Part shown: piece after piece, positions 27,389 through 36,819 of the stretch
Layout of the letters: each line of letters starts with the position of its first letter
How positions within the stretch are numbered: position 1 is the stretch's first letter
Origin: an uncultured delta proteobacterium
GTDB taxonomy: Bacteria; Desulfobacterota; Binatia; Binatales; Binataceae
Direction of reading: 5' to 3'
Length of the DNA stretch: 64,000 nucleotides
Assembly (NCBI GenBank): GCA_963808235.1
Contig: CAWEEQ010000004.1
Location: 3,040,001-3,104,000, forward strand
Notes under the pieces: model-generated
The model's database searches: none
Seen by the model: only the letters and a program-made list of their open reading frames with translations
What the model was told of the DNA's origin: nothing
Position numbers and translations under genes: made by a program

Positions 27389-27813
27389 TGACATCGTCTC
27401 CCAACTGGCATGCGCGCGAAAAAATCTACGCTGTGGCCGTCCTGGTCTCAGCGCTCGCGCTAGGATGCCATCCCGCCAACAGCGCGCGCGGCGTCGTGGA
27501 CGATTTCATCGACCAATACTATGTCGCGATCAACCTGAAGGCGGCGGAGCCCTTCTGCACCGGATTGGCACTCGACAAAATTCATCAGGAAATGAAGCTG
27601 ACCGCCGGGCAGAAAATCGACGCCAACACGCGCAAGCCCGTCGTACACTACCGGCTCAAGGCCGAGCGCGACGGTACTGACCACATCGAATTTCTTTTTC
27701 GCGCTACAATAGATGTGCCCGACGGCGGCACTTTCGAGCGCAACTGGATGATCACTGCGCGCAAGGAATCCGCCGCGTGGAAGGTTTCGAATTTCGGTGA
27801 GTACGAGCAATAG
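27385..27813 (+). CDS. Lipoprotein, NTF2-like/DUF4878-like
   Basis: Lipobox ALG-C; pattern VVDDFIDQYY...AAWKVSNF; translationally coupled to its neighbours. Confidence 0.7.
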   Translation: MMTSSPNWHAREKIYAVAVLVSALALGCHPANSARGVVDDFIDQYYVAINLKAAEPFCTGLALDKIHQEMKLTAGQKIDANTRKPVVHYRLKAERDGTDHIEFLFRATIDVPDGGTFERNWMITARKESAAWKVSNFGEYEQ

Positions 27814-29209
27814 CGCGACAATTGTCCTCGCCGCCGGGCTCGGCACGCGGATGCGCTCGCGCCGCGCCAAGGTTCTGCACGAACTCGGCGGAGAACCGAT
27901 CATCGTACGATTGTTGCGACAAATCGGCGCCAGTCAGGAAACACCGATCGTGATCGTAGTCGGCTACCAGGCGCGCGAGGTCGAGTCGGTTGTGCGCAAC
28001 AGTTTCCCGGATTCCCAAGTTCGATTCGCATTGCAGAGCGAGCAGCGCGGAACCGGCGACGCGCTCCGCGTCGGCCTCCAGAGCCTACCTGCCGACTTCG
28101 ACGGTGGCGCGATGGTCCTCTACGGCGACGTGCCGAGGGTCTCGGATGCGACGCTGCGAGAGTTCTCGAGCGCTATCGATCGCGGCGGCGATTCCGGCTT
28201 TGGATTCATCAGCGTGAAGCTCCCTGATGGGAGTGCCTACGGGCGCGTAATTCGCCACGCGTCCGGACAAGTCGAAGCGATCGTCGAGGCGCGCGACGCG
28301 TCTGTCGCCGAGCTGGCGATCCGGGAAATCAATACTGGCACCTATTACTTTCCGCGCGTCTCGAATCTGCGCGAACTGTTTGCCGAACTGAAACCCAACA
28401 ACGCGCAGGGCGAATATTATTTGACCGATTTGGTCGCGATCGCGCGCCGTCGCGGCCTCAAAGTCGAGGCGTGGATCGCAAAGGACCCGGCCGAGTTCGC
28501 GAACATCAACTCACGCGAGGAGCTGGCAGAAATGGAAGCGCAAATTCGAGCGGCAGTTAACCGCAAACTGATGGAAGCGGGCGTGACGCTCGTCGATCCC
28601 GCGACCGCCTACATCTCCGAGCAAGCCGAGATCGCGCCCGACTGCGTGATCGGCCCGGGCGTGCAGATTCTTGGGACGTGCAAGCTCGGCGAAGGCGTCC
28701 GCATCGACGGCACCGCATGGCTCAGCAACGTGACGATCGGTCCGCGATGCCATCTGAAACTCGGCGTCCGCGCCGAAGATTGCGTGATTGGCGAGGACTC
28801 CGAAATCGGCCCCTTCGCCAATCTGCGCGCCGGCACTGAGCTCGCGGGCCACAATCGAATCGGCAATTTCGTCGAGACCAAGAAAGCGCGCATCGGCCGC
28901 GGCACCAAGGCGAGCCATCTGAGCTATCTGGGCGACGCAACCATCGGCGCCGATACCAACGTCGGATGCGGCGTTATCACGGTAAACTACGACGGCTACG
29001 AAAAGCATCAAACCGTGATCGGCGATCGATGCATGGTCGGCTGCGACACCCAGTTAGTCGCACCGGTCAAAGTAGGCAACGACGTATACGTAGCATCAGG
29101 AACGACCATAGTGCGCGAGGTCCCCGACGGCGCACTCGTGATGTCGCACCACCCGCAGCGAGAAAAATCGGGCTGGATGGCCACCTGGCGCAAACGTCAC
29201 GGCGAGTAG
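27797..29209 (+). CDS. glmU: Bifunctional UDP-GlcNAc pyrophosphorylase/glucosamine-1-P acetyltransferase
   Basis: LAAGLGTRM, YGDVP, NAQGEYYLTD, GNFVETK, HLSYLGD, hexapeptide repeats. Confidence 0.97.
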   Translation: MSTSNSATIVLAAGLGTRMRSRRAKVLHELGGEPIIVRLLRQIGASQETPIVIVVGYQAREVESVVRNSFPDSQVRFALQSEQRGTGDALRVGLQSLPADFDGGAMVLYGDVPRVSDATLREFSSAIDRGGDSGFGFISVKLPDGSAYGRVIRHASGQVEAIVEARDASVAELAIREINTGTYYFPRVSNLRELFAELKPNNAQGEYYLTDLVAIARRRGLKVEAWIAKDPAEFANINSREELAEMEAQIRAAVNRKLMEAGVTLVDPATAYISEQAEIAPDCVIGPGVQILGTCKLGEGVRIDGTAWLSNVTIGPRCHLKLGVRAEDCVIGEDSEIGPFANLRAGTELAGHNRIGNFVETKKARIGRGTKASHLSYLGDATIGADTNVGCGVITVNYDGYEKHQTVIGDRCMVGCDTQLVAPVKVGNDVYVASGTTIVREVPDGALVMSHHPQREKSGWMATWRKRHGE

Positions 29210-29224
29210 GGCTCCACTGTGACG

Positions 29225-30115
29225 ATGCCCAACCTAACCGGCGCGCGCACGCGCTATGCCCGAAAAATTCGGCGCAAGGCGCATTTGCGCTCGAAGCTGC
29301 TCGTGCGCGCGTTTGCCGAAACGCCGCGCGAGGATTACCTCGGCCCGCCGCCGTGGAAACTCATTACCCGCAAGGGCTATCGCGTCCCGCGCAAATCTCA
29401 TCCTCGGCGCCTGTACGACGACGTGCTGGTCGGCATCATCCCCGAACGATTGCTGAACAACGGCCAGCCGAGTGGTCTTGCGATGTGGTTCGACGCGCTC
29501 GATCTCAAACGCAACGAGCGGGTCGTGCATATCGGATGCGGCACCGGATATTACACCGCGATCCTCGCAAGCGTCGTCGGCGCCGGCGGTCACGTGCGCG
29601 CATTCGAGATCGACGCGGAGCTGGCGCCGCGCGCGACTCGCAACCTGGCCCATCTGCGCCACGTCGAAGTGATCCAGGGTGACGGAAGCACCCTCGACCC
29701 CGGTCCGGCCGACGCGATTTTCGTAAACGCAGGCGCCAACTACCCGGCCTCAATTTGGCTCGACTCGCTTCCCGTCGACGGCCGCCTGATGTTCCCGCTG
29801 ATCAGTACGGCCAAAATATTGCATCCGATAGTCAACCCGTGGCGGTCGCGACGTTACCCGCACTTCTACCCGTATGGATTGGGCGGCATGATGATGCTGA
29901 TCACGCGCGAGGCATCGCGCTTGAGCGTCCGCGCAATTTCCTCGGTCGGTATCTTTCCGTGTATCGGCGCGATCGAGCGCGAGGCTGACAAGCGCGCCGC
30001 CGCTGCGCTCGCGCGCACAGACTATGACTCGTTATCGACGCTGCGACGCGATTCGCATCCGCAAGACGATAGTTGCTGGCTGCACGGCGACGGCTTCTGC
30101 TTTTCGACTTTTTAA
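29225..30115 (+). CDS. Protein-L-isoaspartate O-methyltransferase family protein
   Basis: PREDYL, NNGQPS, HIGCGTGYYTAILA, DAIFVNAG. Confidence 0.85.
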   Translation: MPNLTGARTRYARKIRRKAHLRSKLLVRAFAETPREDYLGPPPWKLITRKGYRVPRKSHPRRLYDDVLVGIIPERLLNNGQPSGLAMWFDALDLKRNERVVHIGCGTGYYTAILASVVGAGGHVRAFEIDAELAPRATRNLAHLRHVEVIQGDGSTLDPGPADAIFVNAGANYPASIWLDSLPVDGRLMFPLISTAKILHPIVNPWRSRRYPHFYPYGLGGMMMLITREASRLSVRAISSVGIFPCIGAIEREADKRAAAALARTDYDSLSTLRRDSHPQDDSCWLHGDGFCFSTF

Positions 30116-30195
30116 CTTATTAGCTTTCCAAAGCTCCACCGTCGGGGAGGTTTGCAAACCGCGTGGTCCGGGTGCGAGTCTGAACCCGCCTTAAA

Positions 30196-31575
30196 ATGGA
30201 TATTTCGAATAAGCAGGCGACTGTGCCAAGCAACTGGTTACGTCGTCTGCAGGCCGGCGTGTGCACCTCGCTGGTGTTGGCTCTGTTACTCCTGCTCAAT
30301 CCATTCTTCAGCGCCTGGCAGTACGCCACACGCAGTCCCGGGATCGACTACTTCATGTTGTGGAGTGTGCCCCACGTCCTGAAGATGCGAGCTGTTGCGA
30401 ATATCTACGCGCCAGACAGTCAACGGGACATGGCTTCGGTTTTGATCAGCGAAAGCTCGTCGCCGCAGGTGTCTGAGGTGCAACGAAAGGCGACCGCGAT
30501 CAACATGCAACTTTATGAAAACCGACTGCCTGTCGTCGGGTCGCCTCTCGTCCTTGCACTCGTCGGTCTGACTGCCAGCGGTGCCTACGACAAGGATCTA
30601 ATTCGTTTCGCGATCACGTCATGGCTCTGCTTTATCCTGGCGACAGTTATCTTCTGCCGGCTACTCCGGTTCTCACCGGTGTCAACGCTCTTAGCCGTTG
30701 TGCTTTTCACTACGAGCTTCGAGCCGCTGCTCTCCGATATGAGGGTCGCCAACCTCAACCAGATTCAGCTCTTGCCGCTGGCGTGCTTCCTTCTCTTCAT
30801 CACGCGATCGTGGGGAGTGCTCGCAGGCCTGTCGCTGGGTATCGGCGCAATGCTCAAGCCCAACGTGGCGATCGTTGCGTTCCTGAGCATGCTCGTCATG
30901 CTGACGGATCGGGACTATCGGAGGCTGACTCGCATGCTGGTGGGCATGTGTCTGGCGGCGTTGCTATCGGTGTCGATCTCGGTGAGTTATTTCGGCCTGC
31001 CGGCCATGTGGTGGGATTTCATCCGGAGTCTTTCGGGTACTCTGGCCATATCGTACCCGATGGAAAACGGGAACTACGGTCTGGCGGTCCTGCTGTCTCG
31101 AACGATCCATCGGGAGACGTCCGCATACATCCTGGTCATCCTGATGGCCATCGTAAGCGTGGTGATCTTCAAGACCGGATCGAAACGCGCGCGGGACCTG
31201 GCTCCGCCACCTTCGCGCCGCTCCGATGAATCATCGCGATCGATGCATCGGATGTTTGTGGTCGTCGGTCTTGGATGTGCGGTCATGCTGATGTCCAGTC
31301 ACTTGGCATGGCTGCACTACTATGTCCTGTTAATTCCTCTGGAGTTGTATCTGATCAGACCACCGGCCTTGAGCGACCGACCGCAGCAGCGGCTCATCGT
31401 CAGCATATTCGCGGCGACAAGCTTTTGTTTGCTCTCTTCGGTAGGGCAGTACCTGTGCGCTGATCCGCTACAAGCGTCGATCGCGGTCAACGCAGCGACG
31501 GCACTCATGTTGATCCTTACGCTCTGCGAAACGTGGTGGCCACCGGAACTCGAGCAAGTCAAGAATATCGCGTAA
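30196..31575 (+). CDS. GT87-like (GT-C fold) membrane glycosyltransferase
   Basis: Multi-TM protein; DYFMLW, ANLNQIQ, AMLKPN, AWLHYYVLL. Confidence 0.75.
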   Translation: MDISNKQATVPSNWLRRLQAGVCTSLVLALLLLLNPFFSAWQYATRSPGIDYFMLWSVPHVLKMRAVANIYAPDSQRDMASVLISESSSPQVSEVQRKATAINMQLYENRLPVVGSPLVLALVGLTASGAYDKDLIRFAITSWLCFILATVIFCRLLRFSPVSTLLAVVLFTTSFEPLLSDMRVANLNQIQLLPLACFLLFITRSWGVLAGLSLGIGAMLKPNVAIVAFLSMLVMLTDRDYRRLTRMLVGMCLAALLSVSISVSYFGLPAMWWDFIRSLSGTLAISYPMENGNYGLAVLLSRTIHRETSAYILVILMAIVSVVIFKTGSKRARDLAPPPSRRSDESSRSMHRMFVVVGLGCAVMLMSSHLAWLHYYVLLIPLELYLIRPPALSDRPQQRLIVSIFAATSFCLLSSVGQYLCADPLQASIAVNAATALMLILTLCETWWPPELEQVKNIA

Positions 31576-31619
31576 GTGCGCTGAAAATGCCTCCCTGTTT
31601 TGAGCAGAGGGGGTGCAGG

Positions 31620-33428
31620 TTAGCGCGGCTTCAAACGGTAGAGCTCCACTTCGGGATAGTTCGCGATCGTTTTGGTGAAGTAACGATCGATCTCGGCGAA
31701 CTCCCCCTTAAGCACATTATCCCAATAGCGGGTCATCGGCTTCACTACCAGCACATACACCGGGCGTCCTTTCTGATCCTCTTCTGCGAGCTTGCGCGCT
31801 TCCGCCAAGTCGAATACGCCGCCGGGAAAAAGTATCGGCGGTATCGGTTCGGTCGATCCTTCGACCTTTTTGTTGTAGAGATAGTACAGATGGTACTGGG
31901 TTATCGGTTCCTCCGGGTCAGTAAGACTGTTGAGGCCGACAAATTCGGTTCGTTCTCCACCCGCAAAAAGCTCGATCCATTGTAGCGAAATATCGCTGAC
32001 CACCACTGCGTTCGTCAGCCGGGGCCGGATCGCGAGCACATCGGCGAGCAGCTTCGACTGCCGCGACGGCGCCGCAACCCAGCCAACCGTCTCGACCACA
32101 ATCGCGCCGGCAAGAAGCACGTCCAGGGCAATCACCGCAAATCCCGCCCATCCCCTCTGCGGCCCTCGATTCACGCTGACCAGCCCATAGCCCGCCGCGG
32201 CAAAAACGATAAACAACGCCGGCATCAGGTAGCGAGGATCCACATAGAAATAAAAGAAGTAAGTAAGTAACAGCGCGGCAAGAAAGCCGAGGCCCAAATA
32301 CACCGCACGCATCGTCCTTGCGTTGCGCTTGCCCCGGATCGCGAAGAACACGCCCAGCCCGGCGCAGACCGCGACCGGAAACGGGTAAAAAGCGTAGCGC
32401 GCGCGAATTAACGTTCGGAACTCCTCACCCAGAGTAAGCTGACCGAAGACGCCATCGAGACCAAGCATTGCGAGCGTATAAGAGACAAAATTTCCGTGCA
32501 GATAGGACGAATCCGGGGGCACGACGAAGTAGCTCAACTTAAAAGACGTAGAGACTGAGCTGTAGAATTCCGGCAACCAGAACACGTAACCGCTTGAGAG
32601 GATCGAACCGAGGTAGTGCAGATTTACCCAAGCCTGCAATCCTGGAAATGGAGCGAACCCGATCGCAAACGCCATCACTTGCGCGAACCGTAATCTGCGT
32701 GGCCGAACGAGTAGAGCCGCCGCCAGCATTCCGGCCAATATTGCGCCGTTGGTGACGTGGACTATGACGGCCAGGCCCGCCAGCAGTCCGCACAGCGTGG
32801 ATGCGACCAGGCTTTCTTTTTCCTCGGCATACAAAAATGCCAGTGCAGCAAGGACTACGACCGCAAGCGAAGGAACGTCACTCATCACGCAGGTGGAAAG
32901 TCCGAGAAAATATGGCGACGTAGCCAGCAGTAACCCGGCCAAAATCGCGCTTGGCCGGTCGAACGCCCATAGCGTCAAGAGATAAAGCCCGGCTATCGCG
33001 ACCAATGCCGTCAGTGCTGTAACCAGGCAAAGCCGTTCGGGCCTATGCCCCACAAGTGGATACGCCGCAGCTAGAATGAGCGGATAACCGATCGTATAGC
33101 GAGGCGGATAAGAATTTCCCCCGAAATGGAGCACCGGGCCTAGGCCGCTATCAAGGTCTACCGCAATCGCCGCGTATTCAATCGCGTCGGGCGTCGGGTA
33201 TAGTTCCTGTCCGTTGGCAAATCCCGTGCGCACGATCAGGAGCATCGCAAAACCGAGCAGGAGCGCGAGCAGCGCCGCGTCGATCCCCTTGAAGCGAAAG
33301 ATCGACGCTTCCCCCGCTTCTCTGCCCGGCCGAGCGGGCTCTGATGAATCAGAGTCCGAAGAGTGTCGCGGCCTTTCCCGGCTCGATCCACTTCGGGATC
33401 GCGCCTTGGCGCGTGAACTTCGCGACAT
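31620..33428 (-). CDS. ArnT/PMT_2-like GT-C membrane glycosyltransferase
   Basis: Multi-TM protein; PDAIEYA, GYPLILA, MSDVPS, PRYLMPA. Confidence 0.78.
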   Translation of the reverse strand: MSRSSRAKARSRSGSSRERPRHSSDSDSSEPARPGREAGEASIFRFKGIDAALLALLLGFAMLLIVRTGFANGQELYPTPDAIEYAAIAVDLDSGLGPVLHFGGNSYPPRYTIGYPLILAAAYPLVGHRPERLCLVTALTALVAIAGLYLLTLWAFDRPSAILAGLLLATSPYFLGLSTCVMSDVPSLAVVVLAALAFLYAEEKESLVASTLCGLLAGLAVIVHVTNGAILAGMLAAALLVRPRRLRFAQVMAFAIGFAPFPGLQAWVNLHYLGSILSSGYVFWLPEFYSSVSTSFKLSYFVVPPDSSYLHGNFVSYTLAMLGLDGVFGQLTLGEEFRTLIRARYAFYPFPVAVCAGLGVFFAIRGKRNARTMRAVYLGLGFLAALLLTYFFYFYVDPRYLMPALFIVFAAAGYGLVSVNRGPQRGWAGFAVIALDVLLAGAIVVETVGWVAAPSRQSKLLADVLAIRPRLTNAVVVSDISLQWIELFAGGERTEFVGLNSLTDPEEPITQYHLYYLYNKKVEGSTEPIPPILFPGGVFDLAEARKLAEEDQKGRPVYVLVVKPMTRYWDNVLKGEFAEIDRYFTKTIANYPEVELYRLKPR

Positions 33429-33609
33429 TCAGTGTGCTCCGTCGATCCCCTGCATTACTAACAAAAACAAACGACTCGGTAGTCCAGCTTTTCGGCGAAC
33501 GGTTCCTCTCAATAGACACCGCCACATCGAAAAACAACAACAGCGGCCTGTCCGCGCTGACTCAGAGCAACGACTTCAGCTTCGGTCGCATCTCGACTAG
33601 TTTACGAGA

Positions 33610-34026
33610 ATGCTAAAAGGATCCTGCGCTTGCGGGCGCATACGCTATCAGATCAATGGAGAGCTCCTCGGGCCAATCACCTATTGCCATTGCTGGCGAT
33701 GCCGAAAACACTCCGGGTCAAGCTTCGGGACAACTGCCGGGGTGAACGCCGGCGAATTCTCGTTCGTCTCCGGGAACGAGCTCTTATCGAGTTGGGAATC
33801 CAGCCCGGGTGTTCATAGATTTTTTGCGAGCTGCTGCGGCTCACCCATCTACAAGCGTGATGACGCTGCTCCTCAAGTGCTCGGGTTCCGGCTCGGAACG
33901 CTCGACTCCGACCCTTTGCGGAGCGCCGACGTGCATTTCATGGTCGGCTCGAAAGCGCCATGGGTGAAAATCAGCGACACTCTTCCGCAGGAACCGGGCG
34001 GCGTCCCGTTCGGTGAGCGCGACTAG
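33610..34026 (+). CDS. GFA (glutathione-dependent formaldehyde-activating/CENP-V) family protein
   Basis: GSCACG, CHCWRCRK, FASCCGSP (a variant of the FCxxCGS motif). Confidence 0.9.
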   Translation: MLKGSCACGRIRYQINGELLGPITYCHCWRCRKHSGSSFGTTAGVNAGEFSFVSGNELLSSWESSPGVHRFFASCCGSPIYKRDDAAPQVLGFRLGTLDSDPLRSADVHFMVGSKAPWVKISDTLPQEPGGVPFGERD

Positions 34027-34029
34027 CGA

Positions 34030-34452
34030 ATGGAAAGTGCAAAACGACAACGCGTCGGCTATGTCGCACTCGTCGTTCGCGACTACGATGAGGCGATCGA
34101 CTACTACACGAATGTGATCGGGTTCGAGGTCGTCGAGGATACCCCGCTCGGCGGCGAAAAGCGGTGGGTGCTCCTCGCGCCGCCCGGCTCCACAGAAACG
34201 CGCCTGCTCCTCGCCAAAGCATCAACGCCGGAGCAGATGTCGCGAATCGGCAATCAGACCGGCGGACGGGTTTTCCTTTTTCTTCACACCGATGATTTCC
34301 GGCGCGATTACCACGCGATGTTCACTCGCGGCGTCAAGTTTTGCGAGGCTCCGCGCGACGAATCGTACGGCACCGTCGCGGTGTTCGAAGATTTCTACGG
34401 CAATCGATGGGATCTGCTGCAGCTGCGACCGTCGTCAAAGGCATCGGTATAG
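34030..34452 (+). CDS. VOC/glyoxalase family protein
   Basis: ALVVRDYDEAIDYY, GNQTGGRVFLFL, EDFYGNRWDL. Confidence 0.92.
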   Translation: MESAKRQRVGYVALVVRDYDEAIDYYTNVIGFEVVEDTPLGGEKRWVLLAPPGSTETRLLLAKASTPEQMSRIGNQTGGRVFLFLHTDDFRRDYHAMFTRGVKFCEAPRDESYGTVAVFEDFYGNRWDLLQLRPSSKASV

Positions 34453-34669
34453 CGCATCGATCAGCGCCGCGGCGCGCACATCGACCAGATTGCCTGGGAG
34501 CATCTGATTCATGGCGTATCCGAAGCCAACAGAAGCATCGCTATGATCGCAGGATGGCACACCGGCGCGCCTCGCTTGCCACGGCCATGCTCACACGCGG
34601 ATAATAAGTCGTAAGGGGCACGGTTGGCCCATCCAGAAGCGAGGTAGTGGTCTAAGCAAAAAATCGAAA

Positions 34670-34830
34670 TAAACGAGAGTAGCGCCAGAACTCATAATCC
34701 TATGAGTTGACGAGGTGGAAGCAGTATCGAAGATAATCGGCGGATGGCTTCCCGGCTCCACGGTCGATAGAGGCGAACAAACCGCGCGGGTGACCGCGCG
34801 ACAAATTCGAGTCCTCACGTGGCTGAGCAT
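34670..34830 (+). ncRNA. glmS ribozyme (GlcN6P-activated self-cleaving riboswitch)
   Basis: Conserved core AGCGCCAGAACT at 34681; P1 AACTCATA/TATGAGTT; GACGAGG at 34709; TATCGA...TCGGCGGATG..TCCCGG; P4 CGCGCGG-GTGA-CCGCGCG-ACAAA; upstream of glmS. Confidence 0.93.
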
Positions 34831-34986
34831 AAGGCTCTGATCAAGGTTTCCCTAAACTCTCCCGCTTTGACCATTTCGTCCACTCTCTGTGGTGGCTCAC
34901 GATCGCTCCCCCGAAGCGAGCACGAATGTTTAACGTTTTCGTGCTCATGCGGACAACTCCGTAACGGTTCGGAATAGGAGTGATTC

Positions 34987-36819
34987 ATGTGCGGAATAAT
35001 CGGATACGTTGGGCCGAGCGAGGCATACCCGATCCTGCTCGACGGACTTGGCCGCCTCGAGTATCGCGGCTACGACTCCGCCGGCGTCGCCACAATTGTC
35101 GATAGCGGCAAGCTCGAAGTTCGCCGAGCCAAGGGTAAGCTGCAGAACCTCCGGCTCCTGCTCGCGGACTCGCCGCTCGAGGGCCATATCGGGATGGGGC
35201 ACACACGATGGGCGACGCACGGCCGTCCCTCGGAGGAGAATGCGCATCCGCATCGCGCCGGCCCGGTCGCGGTCATCCACAATGGAATCGTCGAGAACTT
35301 TATCGAGCTGCGCACCGAGCTGCTCGCGCGCGGCCACAAGCTCCGCTCCGAGACCGACACCGAGTTGATCTCGCATCTGATCGAGGAAAAACTGAAAACG
35401 GGCCGCGGCTTGACCGAGGCAGTCCGCGAAGCGGTGATGCGTATCCGCGGTTCGTTCTCGATCGTGGTGCTGTCCGAGACCGAGCCCGACAAGCTGGTCG
35501 CCGCGAAGACCGCGACACCGCTGGTGCTGGGACTTGGCGAGGGCGAGAATTTTATCGCGTCGGACATTCCTGCGATCCTCCAACACACGCGCCGCGCGAT
35601 GGTTCTTGAAGACGGCGAACTCGCCGAAGTCACTGCGATCGGAATCCGCCTGATGAAATTCGACGGCACCGCGGTGACTCGCATTCCGCGCCAGATCGAA
35701 TGGGACGCAGCCGCGGCGACCAGGGGCGGCTTCCGCCACTACCTGCGCAAGGAAATCAACGATCAGCCGCAGGCGTGGATCGACACGATGGCGGGACGTG
35801 CTGCCGCGGGTTCATCGACAGTCCACTTCGAAAGCGACCTTCTCCCCGCAGGCGGTCCGTCGTCGATCGGGAGAATCGTGATCGTGGGCGCAGGAGCGTC
35901 GTGGATCACCGCGCAGATCGGCAAGTTCATGATCGAGGAGCTGGCCGGGATCCCGGTCGAAGTCGATTACGCATCGGAGTTCCGCTATCGGCGTCCGCCG
36001 ATCGACGAGCGGACGATGATCATCGCGGTGTCGCAGTCGGGTGAGACCGCGGACACGCTCGCCGCAATGGAAGAAGGCGGCGGGCGCGGCGCGCATCTGC
36101 TGGCGATCACAAATACGGTGGACTCATCGATCGCGCGCAAGGCCAACGCGCAGCTTTACACGCGATGCGGTCCCGAGACGAGCGTCACCACCACCAAGTG
36201 CTTTCTGACTCAGCTGGAGTCGTACTATCTGTTCGCGATTCATCTGGCGGCGCGGATGGGTCGTCTGTCAAATTCCGAGGCGGAGAAACTCCTCCAGCCC
36301 GCGTTCGCCATTCCCGCCGAGCTCAAAACGATCTTTGCGAACGAGCCGGCGATCGCGCAGATCGCACGCAAGTACGCTTCGGCGAGCGACTTCCTGTTCC
36401 TCGGGCGCGGAATAAATTATCCGGTCGCGCTCGAAGGAGCGTTGAAGCTGAAAGAAATTTCCTACATCCACGCCGAAGGCTATTCGGCCGGCGAGATGAA
36501 GCACGGGCCGATCGCGCTGATCGACGAGAAGATGCCGGTGGTCGTGATAATTCCCAACGACAACCTGTTCGAGAAATCGATGTCGAATCTAAAAGAAGTC
36601 GAATCGCGCAACGGGCGGATTATTGCTGTGACGAATCACGCGACCGATGAGTTGAAGCGGGTCGCCGCCGATGTGATCGAGGTGCCCGAGACAAACCGGA
36701 TGCTCACGCCGGTGCTGATGACCGTGCCGCTGCAATTGCTCGCGTACCATATCGCGGCCGAGCGTGGCACCGACGTTGATCAGCCGCGCAATCTCGCGAA
36801 GTCGGTCACAGTGGAATAG
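34987..36819 (+). CDS. glmS: Glutamine--fructose-6-phosphate aminotransferase
   Basis: MCGIIG, EYRGYDSAG, GHTRWATHG, SQSGETADT, QPRNLAKSVTVE. Confidence 0.98.
   Translation: MCGIIGYVGPSEAYPILLDGLGRLEYRGYDSAGVATIVDSGKLEVRRAKGKLQNLRLLLADSPLEGHIGMGHTRWATHGRPSEENAHPHRAGPVAVIHNGIVENFIELRTELLARGHKLRSETDTELISHLIEEKLKTGRGLTEAVREAVMRIRGSFSIVVLSETEPDKLVAAKTATPLVLGLGEGENFIASDIPAILQHTRRAMVLEDGELAEVTAIGIRLMKFDGTAVTRIPRQIEWDAAAATRGGFRHYLRKEINDQPQAWIDTMAGRAAAGSSTVHFESDLLPAGGPSSIGRIVIVGAGASWITAQIGKFMIEELAGIPVEVDYASEFRYRRPPIDERTMIIAVSQSGETADTLAAMEEGGGRGAHLLAITNTVDSSIARKANAQLYTRCGPETSVTTTKCFLTQLESYYLFAIHLAARMGRLSNSEAEKLLQPAFAIPAELKTIFANEPAIAQIARKYASASDFLFLGRGINYPVALEGALKLKEISYIHAEGYSAGEMKHGPIALIDEKMPVVVIIPNDNLFEKSMSNLKEVESRNGRIIAVTNHATDELKRVAADVIEVPETNRMLTPVLMTVPLQLLAYHIAAERGTDVDQPRNLAKSVTVE

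Follow-up and report, generated by a model that had tools for sequence, protein, structure and literature searches.

A glmS ribozyme with predicted lineage-specific helices in the glmS leader of Binataceae, a diderm family of soil bacteria

We analyzed a 64,000-nucleotide (nt) stretch of DNA (the window; positions 3,040,001-3,104,000 of contig C4) from an uncultured soil bacterium of the genus Candidatus Binatus, family Binataceae, whose assembly has 4.59 Mb in four contigs (93% complete, 1.9% contamination). The subject is the leader of glmS, the gene for glutamine--fructose-6-phosphate aminotransferase, of which a single copy was found in the genome. When the whole window was searched against Rfam 15 with cmscan, the glmS ribozyme family RF00234 was the sole match above threshold (83.4 bits, gathering score 37, E = 1.1e-17). 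The alignment is not truncated and spans the full model (positions 1-167 of 167); no other RF00234 match occurs in the 4.59-Mb genome. The initial annotation, made from the letters of the sequence, had claimed a complete glmS ribozyme here, and the Infernal search against Rfam that it suggested bore this out with a score far over threshold. The interval it gave (34670-34987) does cover the ribozyme but also takes in the spacer before glmS, as the Rfam match itself ends at 34824.

The highly conserved core stretches of the model (AGCGCC, GACGAGG, AUCGA, UCGGCGGAUG, GUGA and ACAAA) all align identically in the cmscan alignment, and the core elements and cleavage site named in the initial annotation lie where it had placed them (Table 1). 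P2 differs from the model by a change of G-C to A-U that is compensated on both strands, the P1 loop has 4 nt in this genome, and P3 is short. The ATG of glmS lies 305 nt downstream of the cleavage site, in agreement with the roughly 300 nt first estimated. In 53 of 57 related loci (three of the 57 from unpublished genomes) a GlmS start of the MCG type was called 259-431 nt downstream of the cleavage site; the four loci without a called start comprise three pattern failures or incomplete loci and one locus ending early. The distance from ribozyme to ATG reaches 359-431 nt in four loci (L009, L108, L119 and L122) through extra GC-rich hairpins or inserts in the spacer.

Table 1. Features of the glmS leader and of the region from glmU to glmS (window coordinates; two ranges separated by a slash are the two strands of a helix)
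Feature	Position	Strand	Evidence or remark
glmU (bifunctional GlmU)	27797-29209	+	TIGR01173, 486.4 bits (cut-off 366.85)
PCMT-like methyltransferase	29219-30115	+	Pfam/NCBIfam
GT87-like protein (membrane glycosyltransferase-like)	30196-31575	+	Pfam/NCBIfam
PMT_2-like membrane glycosyltransferase	31620-33428	-	Pfam/NCBIfam
GFA-family protein	33610-34026	+	Pfam/NCBIfam
VOC/glyoxalase-family protein	34030-34452	+	Pfam/NCBIfam
Sigma-70-like promoter (TTGCCA, 18 nt, GATAAT)	34576-34605	+	10/12 consensus matches; 1 site against 0.4 expected
Conserved leader motif CGAGGUAGUGG (family consensus ACGAGGUGAYGG)	34640-34650	+	Repeats ACGAGGUG of the core
glmS ribozyme (P1, P2, P2a, P3, P4, P4a, catalytic core)	34670-34824	+	RF00234, full model
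P0, 5' strand GAGAGU	34675-34680	+	Ends one nt before the scissile bond; pairs with 34856-34861
Predicted self-cleavage site, A(-1)/G(+1)	34681-34682	+	Alignment to RF00234 consensus A|GCGCC
P1	34689-34696 / 34701-34708	+	Sequence and cmscan alignment
GACGAGG core strand	34709-34715	+	Sequence and cmscan alignment
ATCGA core strand	34726-34730	+	Sequence and cmscan alignment
TCGGCGGATG core strand	34737-34746	+	Sequence and cmscan alignment
P3.1, 5' strand CCAC in the P3 loop	34758-34761	+	Pairs with GUGG, 34819-34822
P4a, with GUGA loop at 34790-34793	34783-34789 / 34794-34800	+	Sequence and cmscan alignment
ACAAA after P4a	34801-34805	+	Sequence and cmscan alignment
P3.1, 3' strand GUGG after P4	34819-34822	+	Pairs with CCAC, 34758-34761
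P5 hairpin (CUGAGC-AUAAG-GCUCUG)	34823-34839	+	Almost wholly past the end of the Rfam match
P0, 3' strand ACUCUC	34856-34861	+	Inside near-invariant UAAACUCUCC; pairs with 34675-34680
Variable hairpin-rich spacer	34862-34975	+	Poorly conserved across genera
Shine-Dalgarno AGGAG, 6 nt 5' of ATG	34976-34980	+	Sequence; GGAG-type purine-rich block at the same place in relatives
glmS, 610 amino acids	34987-36819	+	TIGR01135, 776.9 bits (cut-off 418)

The initial annotation had also suggested a survey of glmS leaders in relatives, and this recovered the same leader with compensatory changes. A first alignment held 39 Binataceae ribozymes, with slid pairing partners and 500 shuffles as the null; 97.9% of its cells were paired (31-40% with slid partners), and double changes were seen at 17 of 41 pairs, a level that none of the 500 shuffles attained. 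Addition of 20 genome loci and of 68 metagenome stretches, the latter found by a core pattern chosen to avoid the new elements P0 and P5 described below, gave 99 distinct sequences, in which all helices hold, 96.4% of cells are paired and 27 of 53 pairs show double changes. Across both alignments, pairing with slid partners was 30-42%, against 96-98% for the real ones. The stretches A|GCGCC, GACGAGG, AUCGA and UCGGCGGAUG are invariant across the 99 sequences; P2a never varies in the alignments and is thus uninformative for covariation. Together these patterns indicate that the structure of the ribozyme is under selection in Binataceae.

The pseudoknot P3.1 joins the P3 loop to the segment after P4, an interaction known from crystal structures of glmS ribozymes. 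Its pairing stands at 99.7% in the 99 sequences, where one pair is CG in 95, GC in 1, UA in 1, UG in 1 and unpaired in 1, so that two sequences carry compensated variants (GC and UA). A GCCA/UGGC helix proposed by RNAalifold from the short alignment was rejected for its complete lack of covariation and its disruption in genus g94; the GUGG that overlaps it pairs with the P3 loop as P3.1 instead.

Comparison of the sequences points to two lineage-specific elements that lie largely or wholly 3' of the Rfam match, a closing helix (P0) and a 3' hairpin (P5). P0 has six base pairs (GAGAGU/ACUCUC) and spans the cleavage site. It was predicted de novo by RNAalifold and is present in the minimum free energy and centroid folds of the window's own sequence; GAGAGU is invariant in 97 of the 99 sequences, and 99.8% of P0 cells are paired (20-66% with slid partners). 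Two double changes were observed against 0.1 expected, a number reached by 0 of 500 shuffles. The compensatory pairs are AAGAGU/ACUCUU in L115 and GAAAGU/ACUUUC in L165, accompanied by two G.U intermediates and one A.C mismatch; as each change comes from one single sequence, the covariation support for P0 is suggestive but thin. Among 16 ribozymes parsed from other phyla (the site pattern missed six further loci), none had a P0-like helix that beat 95% of shuffles, the best standing at 18/200. Possible roles of P0 include insulating the ribozyme fold within an operon, retaining the 5' product, or releasing an anti-Shine-Dalgarno-like trailer once cleavage has occurred. Sequestration of the Shine-Dalgarno sequence by CUCUCC was set aside as a stand-alone reading (only 4-5 bp, without covariation). 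Closer to glmS, a second conserved motif, AACUCYG(U/C)AA, occurs shortly 5' of the Shine-Dalgarno sequence in the window (34940-34960) and in relatives, and the window's ACUCC (34956-34960) is able to pair with GGAGU (34977-34981) and may be an element that masks the Shine-Dalgarno sequence.

In P5, four of six pairs show double changes and 91% of cells are paired in the 99 sequences. Its reading as a terminator was rejected, since it was flagged as such in locus L007 and not in the window, and the U-tract is not conserved. Upstream of the ribozyme, the GAGGU[GA] motif of the leader is present in 94 of 116 distinct sequences, and 58 of these have it exactly 40 nt 5' of the cleavage site. The best duplex partner of this motif lies at +110 to +130 (the 3' region of P4a/P4) in about half of the sequences, and such a duplex could form an alternative pairing. 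A leader peptide ending at the UAG of the cleavage site was rejected because its frames are not conserved (judged by eye; two to three codons in L001 and L003).

The sigma-70-like promoter in the window puts the predicted transcription start about 70 nt 5' of the cleavage site. Of 26 relatives examined, 24 have a similar pair (TTG, N16-19, TAAT-like) at a comparable distance, in most of them about 49 or about 72-78 nt 5' of the cleavage site; the relatives' sites score 5-10 of 12, and those at 5-7 are not above chance. In L007 the promoter-like site lies just past the glmU stop codon, and no plus-strand intrinsic terminator was found in that locus between glmU and the ribozyme promoter. The element thus probably has its own promoter, with read-through from glmU as a possible second source of transcripts.

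The ribozyme is usually found between glmU and glmS. In 41 ribozyme-bearing genomes compared by hand on coordinates, with the gap measured from the end of the glmU hidden Markov model (HMM) match, the ribozyme lies 110-300 nt past that end in 24 (one of them unpublished) and 460-5485 nt past it in 14, and is unlinked to glmU in three, all of genus g94; the actual glmU stop codon is about 60 nt beyond the end of the HMM match in L007. In ribozyme-lacking genera glmS adjoins glmU. Of 23 representative loci from these genera, 21 have a plus-strand open reading frame (ORF) that enters at the upstream edge and reaches to 3-128 nt before the start of glmS, and the three such ORFs tested by HMM are GlmU C-termini (277-284 bits). 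The basic design in this lineage is glmU, then the ribozyme, then glmS. In the window, five unrelated genes spanning about 5.2 kb (29219-34452) separate glmU from the leader, and the resulting gap of about 5.5 kb is the largest insert among the genomes compared. The block is absent or much shorter in most relatives, and its genes sit at this place here and in a few relatives only; the glmU-glmS spacer looks like a hot spot for insertions. Two further loci concern the spacer and its flanks. In L136 (G236:C24, ribozyme-lacking genus g81) a 125-residue ORF, of GIY-YIG type by eye, fills the glmU-glmS spacer, and in genus g83 (G181:C18:95944-97785) the glmS next to glmU is only 56% identical and has six TGA and one TAA internal stops, so that the copy may be degenerate, or the assembly or reading frame may be at fault.

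The initial annotation had guessed from the sequence that the host is a Binatota-like diderm, and this was right. The closest GlmS loci (86-89% identity) come from Candidatus Binatus sp., a Candidatus Binataceae bacterium or entries named 'uncultured delta proteobacterium', and profile searches found BamA (596.6 bits) and LpxC (234 bits) in the genome, which therefore belongs to a diderm with lipid A synthesis. The gene for ribonuclease J (RNase J), which the annotation had recommended looking for, is present (G000:C4:1274586-1276211; TIGR00649, 457.3 bits against a cut-off of 400). The contrast it drew with the small RNA (sRNA) control of Enterobacteria also holds, since searches for GlmZ (RF00083) and GlmY (RF00128) gave no match in this 93%-complete genome, whereas the E. 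coli control matched. Elsewhere in the family, one genome (G238) encodes RNase J twice (549.6 and 459.8 bits), and another (G246, contig C30) has a second, divergent glmS-like gene (52% identity).

The ribozyme was found in 22 of 24 genomes of the genus (of the two misses, one has glmS at a contig edge and the other is a 64% complete genome) and in 0 of 16 genomes from other families among the nearest relatives. A sample of the class Binatia gave nine of 151 genomes, this one included, with none in the 133 genomes from 18 other families. In a sample of 151 Binataceae genomes, of which seven are flagged unpublished, the ribozyme was found in 68 (67 above the cut-off), belonging to 12 of 30 genera, and its presence is nearly all-or-none per genus: 31/32 in g1, 11/11 in g20, 9/10 in g94, 5/6 in g88 and 3/3 in g84, against 0/17 in g24, 0/13 in g18, 0/7 in g80 and 0/7 in g21. 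No RF00234 remnant was detected by cmscan at E <= 5 in the glmS loci of 20 ribozyme-lacking Binataceae, so loss appears to be complete and not by decay.

The GlmS protein was found in 142 of the 151 family genomes (full-length matches 68-89% identical to the window protein). Ribozyme-lacking genera (77-79% identity in g24, 80% in g85) stand no further from the window protein than do ribozyme-bearing genera other than g1 (75-82%). In a GlmS tree of 61 rows (IQ-TREE quick search; support from the Shimodaira-Hasegawa-like approximate likelihood ratio test, SH-aLRT), Binataceae group together as a single clade (support 100). Its sister group is a pair of other Binatia-like sequences (99), and the ribozyme-bearing sequences of Bacillota, Anaerolineae and Aquicultor lie far away from it. 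Outside Binataceae the ribozyme was found at 22 of 39 GlmS loci, namely all the Bacillota-type loci, one of Anaerolineae and one of Aquicultor; none was found at the closest non-Binataceae relatives of GlmS (other Binatia, Thermodesulfobacteriota, Terriglobia, Myxococcota and Bdellovibrionota). The GlmS protein is thus native to Binataceae, so that gain or loss concerned the leader alone. Of the 18 ribozyme-bearing rows of the family, 17 belong to a single clade of 20 (support 98), together with three rows that lack the ribozyme (g81 and g85); the remaining bearer (g79) is grouped with a non-bearer (g92) in another part of the tree. A single clade of all ribozyme-bearing GlmS was rejected by the approximately unbiased test (P-value = 1.6e-9), so that repeated gain or loss, or else recombination, must be assumed.

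The analysis shows directly which RNA family this is, how it is structured and conserved, that it is linked to glmS and that the genome encodes RNase J. The element is real and very probably functional, and we consider it highly likely that it works as a ribozyme activated by glucosamine-6-phosphate (GlcN6P) that feedback-represses glmS. Transcription would begin about 70 nt upstream at the conserved sigma-70-type promoter, some transcripts possibly reading through from genes farther upstream, and the leader would fold into the canonical double-pseudoknot core with P1-P4a and P3.1. At high GlcN6P the RNA would cut itself between A34681 and G34682, and the downstream glmS mRNA, left with a 5'-OH, would be degraded, most plausibly by RNase J, so that less GlmS is made. 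This follows the route outlined in a passage of Goepel et al. (2014, PMC4152352), in which GlcN6P activates self-cleavage and RNase J1 then degrades the 5'-hydroxylated transcript. As part of the same explanation, which as a whole we hold to be well favored, the ribozyme of this lineage would be an insertion into the glmU-glmS spacer beside a native coding gene, with the leader as the sole acquired part and with P0 and P5 as the lineage's own additions.

Several points weigh against this explanation. The spacer after the ribozyme has 162 nt, while Bacillota examples are mostly shorter (16-216 nt in 16 parsed); the outer part of P4 requires a 3-nt bulge in this genome, and P5 carries one U.U mismatch. 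At E <= 1e-50, RNase J was found in 145 of 151 Binataceae, comprising 67 of the 68 genomes with the ribozyme and 78 of the 83 without it; being near-universal with or without the ribozyme, it is permissive and not specific evidence. Among the sequencing runs listed as containing this sequence are 20 soil-metagenome DNA runs and no RNA run.

A bolder extension, which we offer tentatively and regard as less probable than otherwise, is that Binataceae have a distinct subtype of the glmS ribozyme, adapted to a place inside an operon. It would have been acquired as a cassette of the leader alone (promoter, leader, ribozyme, P5 and P0) that entered an ancestral glmU-glmS operon, and would since have spread or been lost within the family by recombination between the conserved genes on either side. 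P0 would pair the end of the 5' product with the CUCUCC trailer, which resembles an anti-Shine-Dalgarno sequence. Beyond exposing a 5'-OH, self-cleavage would in that case separate glmU from glmS and alter trailer pairing, which would make the element a ribozyme counterpart of RNase E/GlmZ processing of E. coli glmUS.

In an alternative that we consider improbable, the ribozyme serves to process a glmU-glmS co-transcript and uncouple the two genes, and its main output is not RNase J decay alone; P0 would tie the 5' product to the CUCUCC trailer and could influence how the product is released, how stable the upstream 3' end is or how well glmS is translated. The short distance to glmU in 24 of the 41 genomes and the terminator-free interval of L007 are in keeping with it, as are the de novo prediction, pairing level and double changes of P0 and the complementarity of CUCUCC to the GGAG of the Shine-Dalgarno sequence; E. 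coli, as a passage in PMC4152352 describes, cuts glmUS in the same spacer through RNase E. However, the conserved promoter between glmU and the ribozyme means that co-transcription is not required, and in the window 5.5 kb, including a gene on the opposite strand, separate glmU from the ribozyme. Furthermore, CUCC/GGAG would form just 4-5 bp over 100-250 variable nt without covariation, and the covariation of P0 comes from two single sequences.

The element is very unlikely to be a horizontally acquired ribozyme that has become an inactive relic, recognizable but no longer regulating glmS. Its patchy presence in the family (12/30 genera) and the small defects in this genome, the P5 mismatch and the P4 bulge, would suit such a relic, but the core is invariant in 99 distinct sequences with pairing kept through 27 pairs with double changes, presence within genera is nearly all-or-none (for example 31/32, 11/11 and 9/10), and the 20 ribozyme-lacking loci hold no remnant at E <= 5. 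Mis-binned or mis-assembled Bacillota DNA, which might come to mind for a ribozyme family best known from Gram-positive bacteria (according to passages in PMC5473149 and PMC4152352), is refuted by the contig context and the GlmS tree, as the window is interior to contig C4 (3.04-3.10 Mb) of a four-contig assembly with 1.9% contamination, the neighboring GlmS falls among Binataceae (SH-aLRT 100) and well away from Bacillota, and the same arrangement recurs in 67 other Binataceae genomes and 68 metagenome stretches.

The GlcN6P-activated ribozyme that we favor is a known RNA family in a lineage for which no published description was found, with a modest structural and genomic twist. Literature searches found nothing joining the glmS ribozyme with Binatota, nor Binatia with a riboswitch; prior listings among environmental sequences, or automatic annotation by Rfam or the Prokaryotic Genome Annotation Pipeline (PGAP), are possible. 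Diderm Negativicutes (loci of Veillonellaceae, Sporomusa and Selenomonas) carry the ribozyme, and Deinococcus does too; the novelty therefore lies in the phylum and not in the envelope type. What is described is a modest extension of a well-understood family and not a new mechanism. It does provide a natural case of a regulatory RNA transplanted without its gene, with related genera with and without the ribozyme available for comparison, and an extra helix bridging the cleavage site that is testable.

The glmS ribozymes of B. subtilis, B. anthracis and Thermoanaerobacter tengcongensis belong to the same RF00234 family and have the same cleavage-site sequence and core strands. P1, P2, P2a, P3, P4, P4a and P3.1 are all common to the Bacillota ribozymes and the Binataceae element; both also lie in the 5' leader of glmS, in genomes with RNase J. 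Unlike them, the Binataceae element resides in a Binatota diderm, usually between glmU and glmS and not after glmM or standing alone, and has a 4-nt P1 loop (in this genome), a short P3, the helix P0 over the cleavage site, P5 and the conserved leader motif. Deinococcus radiodurans (a control match), Anaerolineae (L047) and Candidatus Aquicultor (L049) show that the family is sporadic upstream of glmS outside Bacillota; their GlmS proteins are only 47-52% identical to the window GlmS and lie elsewhere in the tree.

The other comparison is with E. coli glmUS, which has the same gene pair in the same order, the same need to express glmS apart from glmU according to GlcN6P, and likewise an RNA cleavage in the intercistronic spacer. 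As given in the relevant section of PMC4152352, that spacer has 161 nt and no ribozyme, and is cut by RNase E together with an activating sRNA. In Binataceae the spacer RNA is instead predicted to cut itself, in a genome where no GlmZ or GlmY was found, and cleavage would repress glmS, in contrast to activation by an sRNA. Review passages in the same source assign GlcN6P feedback on glmS to a ribozyme in Gram-positives and to an sRNA/RNase E circuit in Gram-negatives; this widespread soil lineage of diderms combines the Gram-negative operon layout, glmU then glmS, with the Gram-positive ribozyme in the spacer.

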